Part shown: piece after piece, positions 1,212-11,425 of the stretch | Layout: each line of letters opens with the position of its first letter | How positions within the stretch are numbered: the first letter of the stretch is position 1 | DNA from: a virus | Lineage: Duplodnaviria; Heunggongvirae; Uroviricota; Caudoviricetes | Direction: 5' to 3' (one strand) | Length of the DNA stretch: 22,019 nucleotides | IMG/VR virus record: IMGVR_UViG_2585427746_000008 | The notes under the pieces: model-generated | What the model was told of the DNA's origin: nothing | What the model saw: the letters and a program-made list of their open reading frames with translations, nothing else | Database searches by the model: none | Program-made: the position numbers and the translations under genes

Positions 1212-1730
1212 TTACGCTTTGGCTTCTTTATGGGTTAAATTGAAATGATGATCCTTGGTTTCATCTCCCTCGAAAATCTCTCTAACCTTTTGATCTGATA
1301 AATTATTAAGGCTCAATGCTGCCAGGCGTCGAATACCTGTTAAAGCGATCAACTCTTGATTCTCTTGATTGCAGAATTCCAGCAATTTTTCTACCCCTTT
1401 CCTTCTCAAGGTGTAAATAACTAATTCTTGCTCTTCTTGGCTCAAAGTGTCGATGAGTTCGAGCAACTCGCTATTGCCACCGTTCTTTTGAGGGGGCTGG
1501 TGTTTTATTTCTGCACTACCTGTAATGATGGAAACAACATGTGCAGGTAAGTCGCTTAAACGGTAGGCAAATGCTCTCCCTCTGATACCAGGTGTAGTTA
1601 CCGAACGTTTTTCCCATCCTTCATTTTTTGCTCGTTTATGAAGCCCAGCCAGAGATGAAGGAAGACCTCCAACCCCCAACAAGTCACTGGCAAGGATCCA
1701 TTCTTGGTCAAGGATCATATCAAACTCCAT
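1212..1730 (-). CDS. Mu c-like repressor with N-terminal winged-helix DNA-binding domain
   Basis: Leftward ORF directly inside the left end, as in Mu. The motif LPSSLAGLHKRAKNEGWEKR is nearly repeated at the N-terminus of the transposase (LPSSLAGLHKKAKREAWKTR), the arrangement known for Mu repressor and MuA. The real start may be the second Met at 1718, which has a GGAG upstream. Confidence 0.75.
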   Translation of the reverse strand: MEFDMILDQEWILASDLLGVGGLPSSLAGLHKRAKNEGWEKRSVTTPGIRGRAFAYRLSDLPAHVVSIITGSAEIKHQPPQKNGGNSELLELIDTLSQEEQELVIYTLRRKGVEKLLEFCNQENQELIALTGIRRLAALSLNNLSDQKVREIFEGDETKDHHFNLTHKEAKA

Positions 1731-2192: not shown

Positions 2193-4257
2193 ATTGATTT
2201 CATTCAGTGACCTACCTAGTTCTTTGGCAGGTCTGCACAAAAAAGCAAAGAGGGAAGCGTGGAAAACGCGGCTAAAACCAGGGGTAAAAGGGAAAGTTTT
2301 AGAGTGTGAAATAGGGGCTTTGCCTTTAACTGTTCAGCAGGCAGTACGCGAACGCTATGCCCTGCAACTGATGACGCAAAAAGCCGATGAATCACCGGCT
2401 CCGGTAGTGACAAAGGCCAGGCGCTCACCTGCCGTGGTTGATGCGGTGGAGGCATATCGCGGATCACCACAACTGATGCTCGAACGCCTCAATGCCCTGA
2501 CTGAAAACCAGCGCCAGGTGGCTGATGCACGAATCGCGATCGTCAGCGAAGTTCTGAAAGTCGCGCAACAACCTGGTTTCAGCTGTGCGAAGGCTATCCG
2601 GTTTATCGTTGACAACCTGGCACGTTCGCAACTGGACGAGCGCATTGTGGCAATGGTTGAGACGGCGAACGCCAAAAAGGGAAACAGCCGTGCGTTGAGT
2701 GAAATCACGCTGAAACGCTGGATTGCAGCCTTTAACAAGGCGCAGAACGCCGCTGAACGCCTGCTTTTGCTGGCACCTGGTAAGCGCCAGGAAATAAAAG
2801 CCGAAGATATTAACTGGCTGCCCGAATTTCTGGCGCAGTATCGCCAGTCAAACGGCCGACCAATGACCGAGGCTTACGAGGATTTTGTCGCTGAATGGCA
2901 GCACCGGCACGCTGATGAGCCTTATATGCTCGATATCATGCCGTCTTACGACACCATCCGCCGCGCAATGAAGAAACTGCCGGAAGTGGTGAAACAAAAA
3001 GGCCGGGTGACCGGCAGTGAATACCGCCAGCTTGAGGGATTCACGCGCCGCGACTGGTCCAGAATGCCGGTGAATTATGTCTGGATTGGTGACGGTCACG
3101 GCATGAAGCTGAAATGCAGGCACCCGGTTCACGGGCGGCCATTTGCACCGGAAGTGACCTTTGTTATCGACGGTGGCACGCGCTTTGTGGTGGGCTGGAG
3201 CCTTGACCTGGCTGAAAATGTTTTCGCCGTAGCCGGTGCCATACAGTACGGTATTCGTAATCACGGCAAACCGTTTCTGTATTACTCGGATAACGGTTCC
3301 GGGGAAACCGCCGACATCCTGGATAAGGAAGTTGTGGGGATCCTGCCGCGACTGGGGATTAATCACCCAACCGGGATTGCCGGTAACCCGCAGGGACGGG
3401 GCATTATCGAACGGCTTAACCGCACGTTACCGATGCGTATAGCCCGTAAATACCGCACCTATTTCGGGAAAGGTGCAGATCGCGAGACGTTACGCAAAAC
3501 CAACCGCGATTTACGCTCGGCATTTACCGCCCTGCAACAGGGCAAACGGCTGAACGCCCGGCAACAGTCAGCGATGCGTGATTTACCGTCCTGGTCTGAA
3601 CTGATTGATGCCATTCGTGATGGCGTTGAGTGGTACAACAACCGGCCGCACGATGAATTACCCATGAAGCCGAACGGGAAGCATTACAGCCCGGCGGAGT
3701 TCAGAAAAAAACGCCTGGCAGAAGAGGACACGGAAATTGAATGGCTGTCCGATGTTGAGCTGCGGGATATGTTCCGGCCAATGGTGGAACGCCCTGTAAG
3801 ACGCTGTGAAATACGCTGGCTGAATAATATTTACTACGCGCCCGAGCTGAGTGATGAGCATGGCCGCAAGGTGCTTATCAGCTATGACATTCATGATGCC
3901 GAACGAATTACCGTACGTCGCCCGGATGGCAGCGTGATTTGCGAGGCGGTATGGGACGGCAATAAACGCGAAGCCTTCCCGGTCAGCGCGGAATACTACA
4001 AACAGCAGCAACGCCTTAAAGGTATGCGTAAACGCGCAGAGGAAAAAATCCGTGATGCCGAGGATGAGGTTGTCAACGTGCTGGAGCACAAGCCGCAGGA
4101 GCCCTGGCTGGAAAACATATACCGCCCTGTGGGTAATACGGTGACCGTTCAGCAACCTGCCGTTGATGATGAGCCTGATGAAGAATACGAGCGTAATTTC
4201 CAGCGGGGATTGCAGTTGCTCGAAGCGAAATTAAAAGAAAATGACCCTCTGGCCTGA
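2173..4257 (+). CDS. DDE transposase (MuA-like)
   Basis: Roughly 695 aa. N-terminal winged-helix motif shared with the repressor. Catalytic-core-like motifs VWIGDGHG, YSDNGSGE and GRGIIERLNRTL are consistent with a D-D-E triad. GGAGG lies 4 nt upstream of ATG 2173; the gene overlaps the ner 3' end. Confidence 0.9.
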   Translation: MWVAMTELISFSDLPSSLAGLHKKAKREAWKTRLKPGVKGKVLECEIGALPLTVQQAVRERYALQLMTQKADESPAPVVTKARRSPAVVDAVEAYRGSPQLMLERLNALTENQRQVADARIAIVSEVLKVAQQPGFSCAKAIRFIVDNLARSQLDERIVAMVETANAKKGNSRALSEITLKRWIAAFNKAQNAAERLLLLAPGKRQEIKAEDINWLPEFLAQYRQSNGRPMTEAYEDFVAEWQHRHADEPYMLDIMPSYDTIRRAMKKLPEVVKQKGRVTGSEYRQLEGFTRRDWSRMPVNYVWIGDGHGMKLKCRHPVHGRPFAPEVTFVIDGGTRFVVGWSLDLAENVFAVAGAIQYGIRNHGKPFLYYSDNGSGETADILDKEVVGILPRLGINHPTGIAGNPQGRGIIERLNRTLPMRIARKYRTYFGKGADRETLRKTNRDLRSAFTALQQGKRLNARQQSAMRDLPSWSELIDAIRDGVEWYNNRPHDELPMKPNGKHYSPAEFRKKRLAEEDTEIEWLSDVELRDMFRPMVERPVRRCEIRWLNNIYYAPELSDEHGRKVLISYDIHDAERITVRRPDGSVICEAVWDGNKREAFPVSAEYYKQQQRLKGMRKRAEEKIRDAEDEVVNVLEHKPQEPWLENIYRPVGNTVTVQQPAVDDEPDEEYERNFQRGLQLLEAKLKENDPLA

Positions 4258-4334
4258 AATAAAAAAATAACCCGAGCGGCGACTCAGGTTATTTGATTAA
4301 ACTCGGAGAACTGTCTCAACGCGAGGTGAATAAT

Positions 4335-5759: not shown

Positions 5760-5918
5760 GTGAAAAAAAATCTCATTGCATGGGCGTGGTCGAGTGGTCT
5801 TATTGAGTTTGGTTACGTCCTGCCGGAAGGTGCATTGCCGATAGTTGCCGGAAAGCCTGCCACGGTACGGCATGTGATTGAGGTTATGGCGCGTCATGGA
5901 CGTGATGAACAGGAGTAG
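5760..5918 (+). CDS. hypothetical small protein (52 codons, GTG start), possibly the N-terminal part of a longer gene interrupted by an in-frame TAG
   Basis: Not in the ORF track because it is under 60 aa. GTG at 5760 is preceded by AGGTGTGAGG. The same frame stays open for 40 more codons after TAG 5916-5918 and ends in a TGA that overlaps the next gene's ATG. Confidence 0.3.
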   Translation: MKKNLIAWAWSSGLIEFGYVLPEGALPIVAGKPATVRHVIEVMARHGRDEQE

Positions 5919-6037
5919 TTACTGGTTCCGGGGATACCGGAAGCGGTGACGGAGGAAGAAGCCTTTAATGCCATGATTCGGTTCTGCCGTGAGGTCAGAC
6001 GCCGGGTCAGTTATCCAAACAGAACGAGGACCAGAGG

Positions 6038-6310
6038 ATGAGTAAAGTCGTACGCATTATTTTCGAATACAAGGAGCACGTTATCCATAAAAACCCTGAT
6101 GGAACAGTGCGCATGGGGGTAAGTCTGGACATACGTTCAACCGGGATAAAGCAGAAAGGTGATGGACCCGCCATGATTTTTGGGGTGGTTATGCTCGCGG
6201 AAAGCAGAGACTTTGCTGAACTTGTAGCAATGAAAGCCAGTGCGCTCATGAAAGATATGAGCATGCGTTCCGGGGTTATTAAAGGTAATGAATTTAATCA
6301 GCAGGGGTAA
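6038..6310 (+). CDS. hypothetical early protein
   Basis: 90-aa ORF beginning MSKVVRIIFEY, in the early operon; its start overlaps the preceding TGA. Confidence 0.55.
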   Translation: MSKVVRIIFEYKEHVIHKNPDGTVRMGVSLDIRSTGIKQKGDGPAMIFGVVMLAESRDFAELVAMKASALMKDMSMRSGVIKGNEFNQQG

Positions 6311-6314
6311 TTCC

Positions 6315-6608
6315 ATGAGCAAAGTACGCGTTATTTTTGAATTTAATCATGTTTCGCATGACGAAAAGTTGGCAGGCAATGACTGTGTTGAAGTGCATGA
6401 AAAGATTGGAGTGGATGTGAAAACAGAACGTGATACGGATAACAGCCCGACGTCACTCTGTGACGTTTATGCAAGTATTCTCCAGTATCACAGTCCTGCA
6501 ATTATTCAGTTTCTCTCAGCGGAATTTCAGGCATCTGTACAGGCTTTTGGGGCGGATGCCATCATTAAACGCCACCGCGTGCATAAAGCATCAGGCACAC
6601 TGCAATAA
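6315..6608 (+). CDS. hypothetical early protein, paralogue-like to the preceding gene
   Basis: Begins MSKVRVIFEF, like the upstream neighbour's MSKVVRIIFEY. ATG 6315 follows the upstream stop closely. Confidence 0.55.
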   Translation: MSKVRVIFEFNHVSHDEKLAGNDCVEVHEKIGVDVKTERDTDNSPTSLCDVYASILQYHSPAIIQFLSAEFQASVQAFGADAIIKRHRVHKASGTLQ

Positions 6609-6619
6609 GGAAAAACAAA

Positions 6620-7150
6620 ATGGCTAAACGCGTTACAAAATTAAAGGCCGCAGCCGAGGCGGCACCGCAGACCCGGGAAGAAGTCAGTCGCGATATCCGT
6701 CGCTTTGGGGATATGCAGCGAGAGGCGCTGCGCCTGGAAACGGCAATGAATGATGAAGTGGCAGAAATCACCGCCCGTTATACGCCGCAGATTGAAAACC
6801 TTAAAAAAGAAATCAAAGTGCTTTTTAAGGGGATTCATGACTGGTGCAAAACCAACCGCGATGAGCTGACGAACGGTGGCGAAACCAAAACTGCCAATCT
6901 GACAACCGGAACGGTGTCATGGCGGCTGGAAAAGCCATCATGCAGCGTCAGCCGTGATGTGGAAGGTGTGATTGAAATGCTGCGCCGTATGGGGCTTGAG
7001 CGTTTCATCCGCACGAAAGAGGAAGTGAATAAGCAAGCCATTCTGGCGGAACCGGATGCGGTAAAGGGTATTGCCGGTATTAAGGTGAATAAAGGCGCTG
7101 AAAGTTTTTCTGTCGAGCCTTTTGAACAGGACGCCGGACTGAATAAATAA
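6620..7150 (+). CDS. gam: Gam-like host-nuclease inhibitor (Mu Gam / Ku-like DNA end-binding)
   Basis: 176 aa with blocks recalled from Mu Gam: MAK...K..AA, LRLETAMNDEVAEIT, NRDELTNGG, TANLTTGTVSWR, LERFIRTKEEVNK. AAGGAAA RBS upstream. Confidence 0.85.
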   Translation: MAKRVTKLKAAAEAAPQTREEVSRDIRRFGDMQREALRLETAMNDEVAEITARYTPQIENLKKEIKVLFKGIHDWCKTNRDELTNGGETKTANLTTGTVSWRLEKPSCSVSRDVEGVIEMLRRMGLERFIRTKEEVNKQAILAEPDAVKGIAGIKVNKGAESFSVEPFEQDAGLNK

Positions 7151-7247
7151 CACCGCATTAAATCTTTAGATATCACATTGTTTTAATTATGGCGCTCGCG
7201 TCAGAGGGCTGCTTGCGCCTGTAAACTGAAAATAAGGAACAGGAAAT

Positions 7248-7790
7248 ATGGCATATTTTTATTTCAAATTAGACAGAGCACAGACAAATAAATATTTCAC
7301 CAAATATCAACAGACTGTTTTACCGCTACGCAACAGTATTCTTCGGACGTTACTGAAAAATACAGGCGCTGCCGGATTGCGCTTAAAGCCGTTCGCCATG
7401 GACAGAATCAGTGAGTTTTATTTTGCCGGTGCTCTGCCTGCGGGCTGGCGTAAGCGCGATGATGTGGCTTTTATCGGTAGCGGACAGTGCTTTATAGCCA
7501 GACCTGATGAGTCATGCCCTGAAGGACCGGCGATTGCCACAATGGTTGAAGCCGCTGAACGCGATTTAAGAAAGCGACCTGATTTCCTTGTCTGGCTCTG
7601 TGAAAAGCTGGGGGTAATGAGAATGCCCTCCATGTTTAACACAGACTCCTGGTGGACCCCGTCTCTCTCCCGTGATGCCCTGTGCGTGGTGTTTAAAGTA
7701 GGTGCTTATGGCAGGGAAATAAACGGGCGTATTCCTGAAGAATGTCAGGAAATTAAACATTCTGAATATGTGGCGCTGACGGAGGAATAA
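7248..7790 (+). CDS. hypothetical protein, first gene of a translationally coupled four-gene cassette
   Basis: 180-aa ORF with AGGAACAGGAAAT RBS, following a 97-bp gap after gam. No family recognised. Confidence 0.55.
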   Translation: MAYFYFKLDRAQTNKYFTKYQQTVLPLRNSILRTLLKNTGAAGLRLKPFAMDRISEFYFAGALPAGWRKRDDVAFIGSGQCFIARPDESCPEGPAIATMVEAAERDLRKRPDFLVWLCEKLGVMRMPSMFNTDSWWTPSLSRDALCVVFKVGAYGREINGRIPEECQEIKHSEYVALTEE

Positions 7791-7793
7791 TTC

Positions 7794-8327
7794 ATGATAG
7801 ATGCAAAAGTGCTTGAAGGGGTTAAAAACTGGCTGAGCATTTACGGGCGTCTGACCTGCGGCGTTCTGGCTCAAAGAATGAATATGCCGCCATCCTCGAT
7901 GGTCTATTTTCTGCGTGATGCGGTTGATGCCGGTGTGCTGACAGAATGTAACGGTTTTTATGATATTCCGCGTCCCCGCCCGGTACAGCCGGTTCGTCGC
8001 AAATGCCGCCAGGAGTCTGTGGCTGATGATGTTCAGTGGTGCAGCTTCAGAAAATCCCTGCCGTGGGTTGAAGGGCATGATATTCCGTCGATGGCGTGGG
8101 AATTTGCGCAGGGCGTTCTGACCTGTGAAACCGTTTATGTGGTGGCTGAAGTTGATGAGCAGGCAATGAAAGAAGGTGTGCCCCAGTTTGTGATGGCGTA
8201 TATCGACATTCGCCTGGGGACCATTATCTGCGGTTTAAGCGGCTGGAATATCACCGAACATGTTCTGCGTTACCTGATTGTTGACCGGACGGCAGCGCCT
8301 GCCGGGATATCTGCGGAGGTGGCGTAA
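7794..8327 (+). CDS. hypothetical protein
   Basis: 177-aa ORF with GGAGG RBS, starting 4 nt after the upstream stop. Confidence 0.55.
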   Translation: MIDAKVLEGVKNWLSIYGRLTCGVLAQRMNMPPSSMVYFLRDAVDAGVLTECNGFYDIPRPRPVQPVRRKCRQESVADDVQWCSFRKSLPWVEGHDIPSMAWEFAQGVLTCETVYVVAEVDEQAMKEGVPQFVMAYIDIRLGTIICGLSGWNITEHVLRYLIVDRTAAPAGISAEVA

Positions 8328-8842
8328 TGTTCTTTAAAACATCGAACCCTTCCGCGCTGGCTGCGTGGCAAAAATATCAGCAGGACTGCCAGCAAGTTAA
8401 GGATGAGGCAAAACGCCTTGAGGCCGTGCTGAATGTTGAGTGCCGGTCGGTATTTGTATCCGGTATCAGCGGTTTTTGTTTTAAGGGGCTGCGTTTTACG
8501 AATGACAAATATCCTTTTCATCGTGATTTATGGCGAAAACCGACTGCGTCGAATGGCTGGAGCTGCACGCCGCGCACATCGCGCATTCCCAAAGCCCTGC
8601 GCACTGCCTCTGACGAACTGAACAGTCTGTGGCGTGAATATTCGCCCGTCACGTATGCCAGAACCGATGCCCTGTTGTTCTGGCTGGGCATTGATTTCTC
8701 AGCAATCCTGTATGGCCCTGTGGAGTGGTTCTGCGTTGACGATGTGATTTATCTTCAGTGCGGTGTAAAACCCGCAAATCAGAAAATGACCGAAATTCTG
8801 TCTGATGAGTTTTATGCTGCTGAAAAGCGAGTCAGGGGGTGA
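8327..8842 (+). CDS. hypothetical protein
   Basis: 171-aa ORF; its ATG overlaps the upstream TAA (GTAATG) and is preceded by GGAGGTG. Confidence 0.55.
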   Translation: MFFKTSNPSALAAWQKYQQDCQQVKDEAKRLEAVLNVECRSVFVSGISGFCFKGLRFTNDKYPFHRDLWRKPTASNGWSCTPRTSRIPKALRTASDELNSLWREYSPVTYARTDALLFWLGIDFSAILYGPVEWFCVDDVIYLQCGVKPANQKMTEILSDEFYAAEKRVRG

Positions 8843-8845
8843 TGC

Positions 8846-9397
8846 ATGATGAAATTACAACCCATGGGGCGAAAAGGTCGTGCACCTGCTCATGTCCGCC
8901 CGTGGACACCTGAAGAAGATGCGCTGCTGATTGCGCTTTATTCCTCCACCCCGGTTAAGGATATTGCCGCCAGAATAAAAAGAAGTGTCTGGGCCGTATA
9001 TAACCGGACTGGCGTATTGCGCAGTACATACCCGGAGTTGCTGAAATATAAACGACCGCGATTTACACCTGATGAAGATAAATTTATCCGAAAAAATGCC
9101 CGGACAATGACCTGCCAGCAAATGGGGGATTATCTCGGACGTAATAAAGACTCTGTCAGGTGCCGCGCAGGAATGATTGGTGCCGGATTAACAAAGTGCG
9201 GTGAGTTACGCCCCGGCACACGTATATCTGATGAGGATGTTCGTCTTATACGTGCACTACGGGATTCCGATTACCCTCGCCGTCTGTCATTCCGGGAAAT
9301 TGGCGAAAAGTTTGGCATATCTGAACATTCTGCTCACGCTGTTTATTACCGTCGACGGACCGCCGAGGACGCTGTATTACGGGAGTTAACGCCATGA
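8846..9397 (+). CDS. putative DNA-binding protein with three tandem helix-turn-helix-like repeats (Myb/SANT-like)
   Basis: Three spaced repeats: WTPEEDALLIALY...IAARIKRSVWAVYNR, FTPDEDKFIRKN...MGDYLGRNKDSVRCR, ISDEDVRLIRALR...IGEKFGISEHSAHAVYYRR. Strong AGGGGGTGA RBS. Confidence 0.5.
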   Translation: MMKLQPMGRKGRAPAHVRPWTPEEDALLIALYSSTPVKDIAARIKRSVWAVYNRTGVLRSTYPELLKYKRPRFTPDEDKFIRKNARTMTCQQMGDYLGRNKDSVRCRAGMIGAGLTKCGELRPGTRISDEDVRLIRALRDSDYPRRLSFREIGEKFGISEHSAHAVYYRRRTAEDAVLRELTP

Positions 9398-9579
9398 TAA
9401 AGAGACTTGTATTTTTCGCAATTATCGTTCCAGTGTGGGGGACTGGTTTTATATTTGCGATTACAGGAAACCTGTCCATTATGCCTGACATTTGGTTCTT
9501 TATCAGGATGTCGCTCTTCCTGTTTATTATGGATTTTCTCATCGGTATATACATTCGTATTTCCGGGAGGCGTAAATGA
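9394..9579 (+). CDS. small hydrophobic membrane protein (61 aa)
   Basis: Almost entirely hydrophobic (LVFFAIIVPVWGTGFIFAITG and FFIRMSLFLFIMDFLIGIYI), consistent with two transmembrane helices. Lies in a low-GC segment; the start overlaps the upstream stop. Confidence 0.45.
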   Translation: MIKRLVFFAIIVPVWGTGFIFAITGNLSIMPDIWFFIRMSLFLFIMDFLIGIYIRISGRRK

Positions 9580-9950
9580 GAAAAATCACGTCCTTGTCAG
9601 AGTTACAGGAGATGAATATGAGCATTGAATTAAGAACGTCTTATGAATATCGTAAAATTCTTATCGCCGGAGGTATGAAACCGGAAGATGCGGAAAAAAT
9701 CGTTTCTTTTATGGATAAAGAATGTGACAAACGGGATGTGCCAGAAATTATTATGGATGACATGATTCTGGATTCAGCCGTAGCGTTAAGTCCGTTATGG
9801 ATTGTGCATTCTCTTGCAGAAATTGCCAGAGGCACCGATAAAATGGCTGCTGTTGCTGCCCTTCAGACGCTTAATGAAATGCGTATATCTCCACGCCCGA
9901 CATTAATACATATGATTCTGTCCAGCATGGAGGATAAAGCTAATGAATAG
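9576..9950 (+). CDS. hypothetical protein (124 aa) in low-GC island
   Basis: GGGAGG RBS upstream; start overlaps the upstream stop (ATGA). Confidence 0.5.
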   Translation: MRKITSLSELQEMNMSIELRTSYEYRKILIAGGMKPEDAEKIVSFMDKECDKRDVPEIIMDDMILDSAVALSPLWIVHSLAEIARGTDKMAAVAALQTLNEMRISPRPTLIHMILSSMEDKANE

Positions 9951-10140
9951 TCTACCCGCTGGATGGGCGCGGCCATTGATGGCTAAGAAGCATCATTTTT
10001 TTAAAACAGGTGAAAATATCAGTATATGTGGGCGGTGGTTATATCTGGCTCATAATCGCGAGCCGGATACATTTGAAAGCCCTGATGACTGTGCCGAATG
10101 CCGCAGAAGACTGAATAAGGAGAAAGATAATGGACAGTAG
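9943..10140 (+). CDS. small Cys-containing protein, possible zinc-ribbon (65 aa)
   Basis: GGAGG RBS upstream. A Cys in ...SICGRW... and a later CAEC pair, about 20 residues apart, suggest a metal-binding knuckle. Confidence 0.4.
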   Translation: MNSLPAGWARPLMAKKHHFFKTGENISICGRWLYLAHNREPDTFESPDDCAECRRRLNKEKDNGQ

Positions 10141-10426
10141 TTCGCAGTTGTTCTGGTGTTTATATATCACATCGTTTTTCGGTGCATTCGTCATTACACG
10201 ATGGCTGTGCCGGAAAGTTATCAGTATTTTTCATAAAAAATACCTGATTGGGCTGGCGGCGGCTTCTCTGATTAATGCACTTGCCAGATATCATAAGGGG
10301 GAATACTACTCAAGAATAAAAACTGTTGATGGTTTTAATATTTTTGTGATTCCTCCGGAGTATCGGGTTCAGCTCGATCGGGAAAATAAAATCTATCATA
10401 TCAGCAGGAGTGTTGATACAGCATGA
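10130..10426 (+). CDS. small membrane-anchored protein (98 aa)
   Basis: AAGGAGA RBS upstream. N-terminal hydrophobic helix LFWCLYITSFFGAFVITRWL. Low-GC sequence. Confidence 0.5.
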   Translation: MDSSSQLFWCLYITSFFGAFVITRWLCRKVISIFHKKYLIGLAAASLINALARYHKGEYYSRIKTVDGFNIFVIPPEYRVQLDRENKIYHISRSVDTA

Positions 10427-10932
10427 GAGGGAAACTGATATCCGCCATTCATGTGGCAAAGCGCGAGCTTGCCCTGGATGATGAAACCTATACATTCGTG
10501 CTGCTGGCAGCCACCGGCAAATCCAGTTGCCGGGATATGTCACCGGATGAGTTATCCCGCGTGCTGGATGTTTTCAAAAAACGCGGTTTTAAAGTGCGTC
10601 AGAAACCGGTTAACCGGGCCTTAAAACCGGGTACGGTGACCGCCAAAATTCGCGCCATCTGGAAGGTAATGCACCGGCAGGGCTTTATCGCTGATGGCGG
10701 GGAAACGGCCCTTAACCGCTGGGTGAAGTCGCAGACGGCCGCGCAGAACGGTGGCGAAGGTGTGGCTAACTGGCAGTGGCTGGAGCAACACCCCGCACTG
10801 GCCTCGGATGTGCTGGAGCGTCTCAAACGCTGGCACCGTCGCAAGATGCTGGATGTGCTGGGGATGTCAGCGCGTACAGTGATGAGTTATGAGCGCGTTT
10901 GCAGGCTGTATGAAGAATCCTCCCCTTTTTAA
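10423..10932 (+). CDS. gemA: GemA-like protein (Mu gp16 family)
   Basis: N-terminus LISAIHVAKRELALDDETY...ATGKSSCRDMSPDEL is characteristic of the Mu gp16/GemA family as I recall it. It is the last gene before the early terminator, as in Mu. Confidence 0.7.
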   Translation: MRGKLISAIHVAKRELALDDETYTFVLLAATGKSSCRDMSPDELSRVLDVFKKRGFKVRQKPVNRALKPGTVTAKIRAIWKVMHRQGFIADGGETALNRWVKSQTAAQNGGEGVANWQWLEQHPALASDVLERLKRWHRRKMLDVLGMSARTVMSYERVCRLYEESSPF

Positions 10933-10936
10933 CCCC

Positions 10937-10968
10937 AAATCCCGCCACAGCGCGGGATTTTTATTTTA
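10937..10968 (+). terminator. Rho-independent terminator ending the early operon
   Basis: 9-bp stem AAATCCCGC / GCGGGATTT (10937-10945 and 10952-10960) with a 6-nt loop, followed by TTATTTT. Confidence 0.7.
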
Positions 10969-11002
10969 AACTTGCCCTGTGTAATGATGACCGGAGGCGG
11001 GT

Positions 11003-11425
11003 ATGGCTGAAACACAGATGAGCATGTTTGGTGACAGCGAACAGCTGCACGCGCTGATTGACCGTCTGGATGATATTCCTGATGATGAGCTGAAAAAGAA
11101 CTGGCCCGGCACGCTGCGGGACCTGGTTGATGTGATCAGTGCTGAACTGCACCGTCAGGGGATTGAACCTGCTCAGGCGGGAATGCTTGCCCGTAAGGTT
11201 GCAGCCGCACAGGCCGGGTACATGGGCGGGCGTGGTTATTATCTCCCGGTCGGTGAATCCCTTTTCACCGAACTGCGCAATAATGAAATTTTTTCCCGCT
11301 GGAGCCAGGGCGAAAAAATTGAAACCCTGCGCCGCCACTACCAGATGTCAGAGACGCAGATTTACTCCGTTATCCGCAACCAGCGTCGCCTGCATCAGGA
11401 ACGCACGCAGCCACGGCTTTTCTGA
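11003..11425 (+). CDS. Mor/C-family transcriptional activator
   Basis: 140 aa with a C-terminal HTH (ETLRRHYQMSETQIYSVIRNQRRL) resembling Mu Mor/C, including the conserved YLP..G motif (GRGYYLPVGESL). Located after the early terminator and before the lysis genes; GGAGG RBS. Confidence 0.75.
   Translation: MAETQMSMFGDSEQLHALIDRLDDIPDDELKKNWPGTLRDLVDVISAELHRQGIEPAQAGMLARKVAAAQAGYMGGRGYYLPVGESLFTELRNNEIFSRWSQGEKIETLRRHYQMSETQIYSVIRNQRRLHQERTQPRLF

Follow-up and report, generated by a model that had tools for sequence, protein, structure and literature searches.

The accessory early region of phage Mu has contained functionally unassigned genes for decades, and a Mu-like prophage raises the question of whether part of this region works as a unit. 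The prophage is contained in the viral record IMGVR_UViG_2585427746_000008 of IMG/VR, a stretch of 22,019 nucleotides that was analysed as a whole and is referred to here as the window. Directly downstream of gam, four open reading frames (ORF1 to ORF4) occupy positions 7248-9397. A preliminary description had presented them as a translationally coupled cassette of unknown function, located where Mu-family phages hold host-takeover and anti-defence genes. Judged by sequence homology, the block consists of catalogued Mu-family early genes, three of them with relatives in Mu and the fourth (ORF1) with a relative in the Shigella phage SfMu; moreover, the four genes assort independently and are not a discrete unit. 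These genes were already catalogued and an identical copy is present in RefSeq; the finding is therefore routine and gives no support for a new system. The modest new points are the probable paralogy between the DUF5420 and gp12 families and an element of about 50 nt in the gam-ORF1 gap that is conserved as far as Mu.

The four genes and their Mu-family relatives

The four genes of the block are the following:
7248-7790, plus strand: ORF1, assigned as a divergent DUF5420/phrog_2260 member, accessory; 180 aa, ATG start, RefSeq WP_000323217
7794-8327, plus strand: ORF2, assigned as the Mu gp11 orthologue; 177 aa, ATG start, RefSeq WP_000564287
8327-8842, plus strand: ORF3, assigned as the Mu gp12 orthologue; 171 aa, ATG start, RefSeq WP_000465566
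8846-9397, plus strand: ORF4, with three predicted Myb/SANT-like helix-turn-helix (HTH) repeats; 183 aa, ATG start, RefSeq WP_000977064

The arrangement is exactly as it had been described, with four ORFs of 171-183 aa, strong ribosome-binding sites and stop-start junctions of +3, -1 and +3 nt. ORF1 and ORF2 are joined by TAA, 3 nt and ATG (7790/7794), ORF2 and ORF3 share one nucleotide in a TAATG overlap at 8327, and ORF3 and ORF4 are joined by TGA, 3 nt and ATG (8842/8846). The Shine-Dalgarno-like sequences upstream of the four starts are, in order, AAGGAA, GGAGGA, GGAGGTG and AGGGGGTGA. In comparisons with related prophages, the ratio of nonsynonymous to synonymous substitution rates (dN/dS) was 0.05-0.36 for all four ORFs, implying purifying selection, and the highest values in the block were those of ORF1 (0.27-0.36). 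Each ORF matches a PHROG family over its full length, with expectation values (E) from 1e-53 to 1e-104, and the RefSeq annotation of the prophage of Escherichia coli AST198 gives the same four reading frames at the same coordinates. Given the agreement between dN/dS, PHROG matches and RefSeq calls, the four ORFs are real genes and not chance reading frames.

We assign ORF2 as the orthologue of Mu gp11 (Mu_11, AAF01088, formerly ORFs E10-E12). Both proteins have equal length and share 67% identity over all 177 residues; ORF2 also covers the whole 78-position model of Pfam PF25754 (Gp11_C) with 139.9 bits (cut-off 27, E 3.4e-41) and matches phrog_1949 with an E of 2e-104, and the mean column identity of its family is 74%. 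As in Mu, the gene lies after gam and is preceded by the same conserved intergenic element, although in this prophage a DUF5420 gene, absent from Mu, is inserted between gam and gp11. No early protein is better conserved between this prophage and Mu than gp11 (67% identity); Gam (57%), gp12 (53-54%), B (48%), GemA (47%) and A (22%) follow. Its N-terminal domain, read by eye, is probably a winged helix. In the Mu record, both Mu_11 and Mu_12 are annotated as 'hypothetical protein'.

ORF3 is in turn assigned as the orthologue of Mu gp12 (Mu_12, AAF01089, formerly E13; PF26885, phrog_2314), with 53-54% identity, 169 of its 171 residues aligned and an E of 5e-60. A precomputed match to PF26885 (Phage_Mu_Gp12) is present in 46 of 46 ORF3 homologues, including 92%-identical ones. 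The start of gp12 overlaps the stop of gp11 in Mu as it does in ORF3, although ORF3 has diverged further from Mu than ORF2 has.

No counterpart of ORF1 was found in Mu by tblastn. Its matches place it as a divergent member of DUF5420/phrog_2260: it aligns with phrog_2260 over its full length (E 1e-71), shares 41% identity with SfMu_11, whose gene fills the equivalent slot behind gam in SfMu, and shares 35% identity at 100% coverage with a 'DUF5420 family protein' from Salmonella. The alignment with DUF5420 proteins (SfMu_11 and gp11 of Mannheimia phage 3927AP2) runs end to end and includes the C-terminal IKHSEYVALTEE motif. Unlike these proteins, ORF1 belongs to a divergent E. coli subgroup and scores below the Pfam gathering threshold for PF17457 (12.9 bits against 26, E 0.095); nevertheless, a profile built from its relatives picked out 26 representatives from 1.84 billion proteins; 21 were aligned, and 18 of them match PF17457 (best E 9e-28). 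DUF5420 homologues are mutually 17-34% identical, only Y5, G93, F113, P152 and I169 are near-invariant among them, and no conserved catalytic residues appear in the alignment. The family was found only in phages. A Mu-like phage of Mannheimia, Vibrio phages of 60 kb and metagenomic contigs carry it but have neither gp11 nor gp12. Scans of two genome collections for DUF5420 confirmed 0 loci in one and 1 locus in the other.

ORF1/DUF5420 and ORF3/gp12 are probable remote paralogues. The AlphaFold (AF2) models of ORF1 and ORF3, with predicted local distance difference test (pLDDT) scores of 88 and 89, display the same order of elements, namely a strand, a long helix, a hairpin, two helices, a hairpin, a strand and a C-terminal helix, with one extra hairpin in ORF1. 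When a diverse DUF5420 alignment was compared with the gp12 alignment using hhalign, both matched end to end over 158 columns (E 9e-5, 59% probability), while the control alignments of gp11 and ORF4 reached an E of about 0.5 over 17-28 columns. It is this match above the controls, together with the shared element order in two independent models, that argues for the paralogy; comparison of ORF1 with ORF3 by BLASTP, or by hhalign on shallow alignments, was not significant. The ORF1 and ORF3 models have no structural neighbor among solved proteins, and sequence and profile searches of the PDB for gp11, gp12 and DUF5420 gave nothing below an E of 0.27. Thus, gp12 and DUF5420 would form one probable superfamily, with a predicted fold unlike any solved structure. 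The authors of the SfMu report suggested that SfMu ORF11 and Mu orf12 are perhaps divergent homologues (PMC4406740), a suggestion that the hhalign match between DUF5420 and gp12 appears partly to bear out.

In the SfMu record (KP010268), a 514-nt unannotated gap after SfMu_12 (2243-2744 of the stretch examined) encodes a frameshift-split gp12 homologue, which is either a pseudogene or a sequencing error. This remnant contradicts the published statement that a homologue of Mu orf12 is absent from SfMu. Since SfMu has a frameshifted gp12 in addition to its DUF5420 gene, the two families are not simple mutual replacements.

ORF4 is a predicted DNA-binding protein with three tandem Myb/SANT-like HTH repeats, distantly related to Mu gp9, and its RefSeq name is SANT/Myb-like DNA-binding domain-containing protein. 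It matches phrog_323 (E 2.5e-53) and scores 23.6 bits on PF00249 (Myb_DNA-binding), just below the cut-off of 24.4. Among PDB entries, its family profile matches the R2R3 region of c-Myb (1h88_C, E 2e-4), a two-repeat match to ORF4 repeats 1-2, and the tandem-HTH protein 2lvs_A (E 5e-4). Three internal repeats can be aligned within ORF4, a Myb repeat being of about 50 residues, and Mu gp9 (Mu_9, formerly E8), a protein of 95 residues, aligns with repeats 2-3 at 32 bits. Mu gp9, however, has two repeats and is encoded just upstream of gam, whereas ORF4 has three and is encoded downstream of gp12; a plain tblastn search with ORF4 found no similarity in Mu, which has no ORF4 at this position. ORF4 and Mu gp9 would constitute a family of tandem Myb-like predicted DNA binders. 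Two allele types of ORF4 are present in E. coli, about 97% and about 73% identical. RefSeq names some alleles (for example, 3770-4321 in one related locus) 'AsnC family protein'. An AsnC/Lrp identity for ORF4 was rejected, with an HTH_AsnC-type score of 19.7 bits against a cut-off of 27 (repeat 3) and no match to the AsnC C-terminal domain; as the ligand-binding domain is absent and the HTH score is below threshold, the name is apparently an annotation artefact.

The view that none of the four products resembles a known Mu early function is sustained for kil/cim, gam, gemA (lig) and mor, which correspond to gp5, gp10, gp16 and gp17 in the Mu record and match none of the ORFs. The block does have Mu counterparts, however, namely gp11 for ORF2, gp12 for ORF3 and the related gp9 for ORF4. 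To our knowledge, no gene has ever been identified with the genetically defined 'arm' function of Mu. Homology of the products to characterised replication proteins would have spoken against an undescribed module, but no clear case of it was found.

Assortment of the genes in related loci

To describe how the genes are combined in nature, loci were seeded separately on gp12, DUF5420 and gp11 and scanned with hidden Markov models of the families, which yielded 75 non-redundant loci. The loci counted are gp11 carriers with enough flanking sequence, loci without gp11 being excluded. The arrangements, in gene order, were:
DUF5420-gp11-gp12-ORF4: 26 loci
gp11 alone: 13 loci
gp11-gp12 (the Mu arrangement): 11 loci
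gp11-gp12-ORF4: 10 loci
DUF5420-gp11-gp12: 7 loci
DUF5420-gp11: 7 loci
DUF5420-DUF5420-gp11-gp12: 1 locus

DUF5420, gp12 and ORF4 come and go among these seven combinations, and gp11 is present in 75 of 75 loci, its carriage having been the condition for counting. In related phages, ORF1 is present, swapped for a diverged allele, duplicated or deleted. Loci in which the ORF1 slot is 'empty' retain the ribosome-binding site of ORF1 and its MKYVY... start, and this remnant identifies them as natural deletion derivatives. In a distant metagenomic Mu-like contig the order is DUF5420, a 67-aa ORF, DUF3164, a shortened 147-aa Gp11_C protein, Phage_Mu_Gp12 and GemA.

The tight junctions do not single out the four genes either. 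From B (4335) to gemA (10932), gaps of -11 to +12 nt are found at 13 of 15 junctions, and the stop of ORF4 overlaps the ATG of the next ORF by 4 nt (9394/9397). Since the same small gaps extend from B to gemA, tight coupling is a trait of the whole early operon and not of the four genes alone. The left edge of the block, at the gam-ORF1 gap, is real, and its right edge is arbitrary. With seven combinations in related phages and these junctions throughout the operon, the four genes assort independently, and the proposal of a four-gene cassette or new module did not hold.

Possible roles of the four products

We consider it reasonably probable that the block belongs to the SEE ('semi-essential early') region of a common E. 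coli Mu-like prophage, and that its genes are four independently assorting accessory helpers of lytic development. The four genes are individually dispensable in nature. All four would be expressed from the early promoter, together with A, B and Gam, and only once the prophage is induced; in lysogens, the early promoter and operon of Mu are repressed by the c repressor, and the Mu record annotates both the repressor and the early promoter. Through its putative N-terminal winged helix, gp11 would bind DNA or a conserved host target, and ORF4 would bind DNA by its Myb repeats, acting as an accessory regulator or a nucleoid-binding factor. ORF1 and gp12 may be small non-enzymatic alpha/beta proteins that bind a host or phage protein; for ORF1/DUF5420, a non-enzymatic character is suggested by the presence of only five near-invariant residues, none of them catalytic. 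Together, the products would enhance lytic replication or host takeover as dispensable modulators, none of them needed for the core Mu life cycle, and such a role would match the classical SEE phenotype. Of the four, gp11 is the likeliest to be important in lytic development, since no early protein is more constrained and every locus counted carries it; it is thus the strongest single candidate for a function of consequence.

Several results weigh against this interpretation. The Pfam scan of ORF2 detects no winged helix at the gp11 N-terminus, the hhalign probability linking ORF1 to gp12 is only 59%, and no gp12 protein could be recognised among the results of a BFVD structure search with the ORF1 model. 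Literature searches for gp11, gp12, DUF5420 and the RefSeq accessions yielded no data about function, and one published account leaves the remaining hypothetical proteins without assignment (PMC4553209). Finally, 55 of the 75 architectures, the distant contig among them, have gp11 and gp12 side by side with an overlap of 1 nt, so that some functional pairing between them is possible.

An obligate pairing, in which gp11 and gp12 would act for instance as a DNA-binding subunit and an effector or adaptor, with ORF1 as an alternative or additional partner of the DUF5420 fold, seems unlikely. It would explain why gp12 directly follows gp11 with a stop-start overlap in those 55 loci, including the distant contig, where a shortened Gp11_C protein still comes before Phage_Mu_Gp12. 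DUF5420-gp11 without gp12 occurs in 7 further loci and, as DUF5420 and gp12 appear homologous, 62 of the 75 loci would have at least one DUF5420-fold partner of gp11. Nevertheless, 20 non-redundant loci lack gp12 and 13 of these also lack DUF5420, with flanks too small to hide either gene, which rules out that gp11 is always accompanied by a DUF5420-fold partner. In addition, DUF5420 occurs without gp11 in Mannheimia, Vibrio and other phages, and gp12 is frameshifted in SfMu.

A counter-defence or host-takeover module, as anticipated in the preliminary description, is distinctly unlikely. During lytic growth its products, especially the fast-evolving ORF1 and gp12, would block host immunity or DNA-repair sensors and perhaps make up for liabilities that Gam creates. 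The block adjoins gam in the accessory early region; ORF1 is variously present, absent, allele-replaced and duplicated across relatives and has the highest dN/dS of the block; and the phage-restricted DUF5420 family combines low mutual identity with the lack of conserved catalytic residues, all of which fits such a module. One report states that Mu-type Gam sensitises phage and plasmid DNA to Gabija (PMC12407980), and in that light a compensating gene near gam would make sense. Against this, PADLOC-DB 2.0, searched at E values up to 0.1, contains no match for the four proteins or for the four downstream ORFs, none of the four proteins matches a PHROG of the host-takeover category, and an NCBIfam search with them gave nothing useful. 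The slot between gam and gp11 holds one family or nothing, unlike counter-defence hotspots, where unrelated genes alternate, and the strong conservation of gp11 is the opposite of an arms-race signature. Neither structure nor sequence connects the block with known systems, no solved structural neighbor was found, and plasmids, searched for DUF5420 only, gave no copy of it. The anti-defence character of the block accordingly found no backing.

It is more improbable still that ORF1 and gp12 belong to an expanding paralogous family of inhibitors, present in zero to three copies per phage, that would neutralise, with or without gp11, a host sensor or defence responding to Gam-type RecBCD blocking or to replicative transposition. 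If this were true, Mu-like phages would carry a counter-defence locus after gam, with a protein fold not described before.

Morons expressed in the lysogen to protect the host, by superinfection exclusion or as a prophage-encoded defence, are highly improbable, for although these are accessory prophage genes of no assigned function and the neighboring 61-aa ORF (o61) looks membrane-protein-like from its sequence, the genes are coupled inside the early operon, no promoter-like site exceeding background precedes them, the early operon of Mu is off in lysogens through the c repressor, and PADLOC gave no matches.

The gam-ORF1 element and the surrounding early operon

The expectation that the genes lie downstream of gam in a Mu-type early operon was borne out by the gene order of the window, which reads c repressor, ner, transposase A, B, gam, ORF1-ORF4, four small ORFs, gemA, a Mor/C-type activator, lysozyme and morphogenesis genes. 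The features around the block are:
1212-1730, minus strand: c repressor, in the left part of the window
6620-7150, plus strand: gam, host-nuclease inhibitor, directly upstream of the block (Pfam Phage_Mu_Gam E 4e-40; 57% identity to Mu Gam)
7172-7222, plus strand: non-coding element of about 50 nt, in which a GC hairpin comes after an AT-rich stretch (TTTTAATTATGGCGC..GCGTCAG.GG..TGC..GCGCCTG)
9394-10426, plus strand: four further small, tightly coupled ORFs after ORF4 (61, 124 or 110, 65 and 98 aa)
10423-10932, plus strand: gemA (Pfam GemA E 1e-29)
10937-10960, plus strand: intrinsic terminator after gemA, with 9 pairs and a T-run, the sole strong terminator of the region

The early transcription unit ends at the terminator at 10937-10960. 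Inside the block, promoter-like and terminator-like sites show no excess over background, and no convincing internal promoter or terminator was found.

The 97-nt gap between gam and ORF1 (7151-7247) is the widest in the early operon and contains the non-coding element. This element (TCACATTGTTTTAATTATGGCGC..GCGTCAGAGGGCTGCTTGCGCCTG) is conserved among this prophage, Mu, and D108-type and Salmonella-type phages, its alignment comprising 39 distinct versions. Its identity to Mu is 76%, compared with 64% for the coding DNA of gam and 69% for that of gp11, and there is a single copy per Mu-type contig. A hairpin is predicted in it, and the variable gene slot starts right downstream. The element might serve for processing or stabilisation, bind a protein or mark a boundary of recombination. 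Its identification as a terminator or a known RNA was rejected, as there is no U-tract, the folding z-score of 0.0 to -2.7 is unexceptional, and neither covariation nor an Rfam match was found; a short ORF starting at the ATG of the element was rejected as a gene, its reading frame not being conserved. The element, gp11, gp12/DUF5420 and ORF4/gp9 are four leads that can be tested directly in phage Mu.

The prophage of E. coli AST198 is 100% identical to the window over positions 6600-10450, but the two differ upstream of about 6600, which means that the window derives from a different strain. The same prophage type was detected in 234 of 5426 complete E. coli genomes and also inside two Stx phage records, where it is labelled 'inserted Mu-like phage'. 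The left flank of the AST198 prophage adjoins truncated pitB and yghD pseudogenes, which fits an insertion that disrupted host genes, possibly with an adjacent deletion.

Upstream of gam, the small early ORF at 5760-6041 has an in-frame stop (..DEQE*LLVPG..) at a position that is Q in the otherwise near-identical AST198 sequence, the gene being cut to 52 aa. Two neighboring small ORFs, at 6038-6310 and 6315-6608, have a common N-terminal MSKV(V)R(I/V)IFE(Y/F) motif (BLASTP E 0.004 over 17 residues) and may be tandem paralogues; an 89-aa ORF resembling this pair occurs in Mu/D108-type loci.

Between ORF4 and gemA, related phages carry unrelated gene sets at the place of 9394-10426 (Mu gp13/gp14/Mu_54, a 252-aa zinc-finger ORF, and others), and this stretch has more of the appearance of a true accessory-gene hotspot than the block of four genes has. 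Beyond gemA, the region 10937-11425 contains the terminator and then a single activator of the Mor/C family (40% identity to Mu C, 28% to Mor), with lysozyme following directly. The prophage appears to be without the separate mor gene and the middle operon of Mu, which suggests a two-tier rather than a three-tier transcription cascade.

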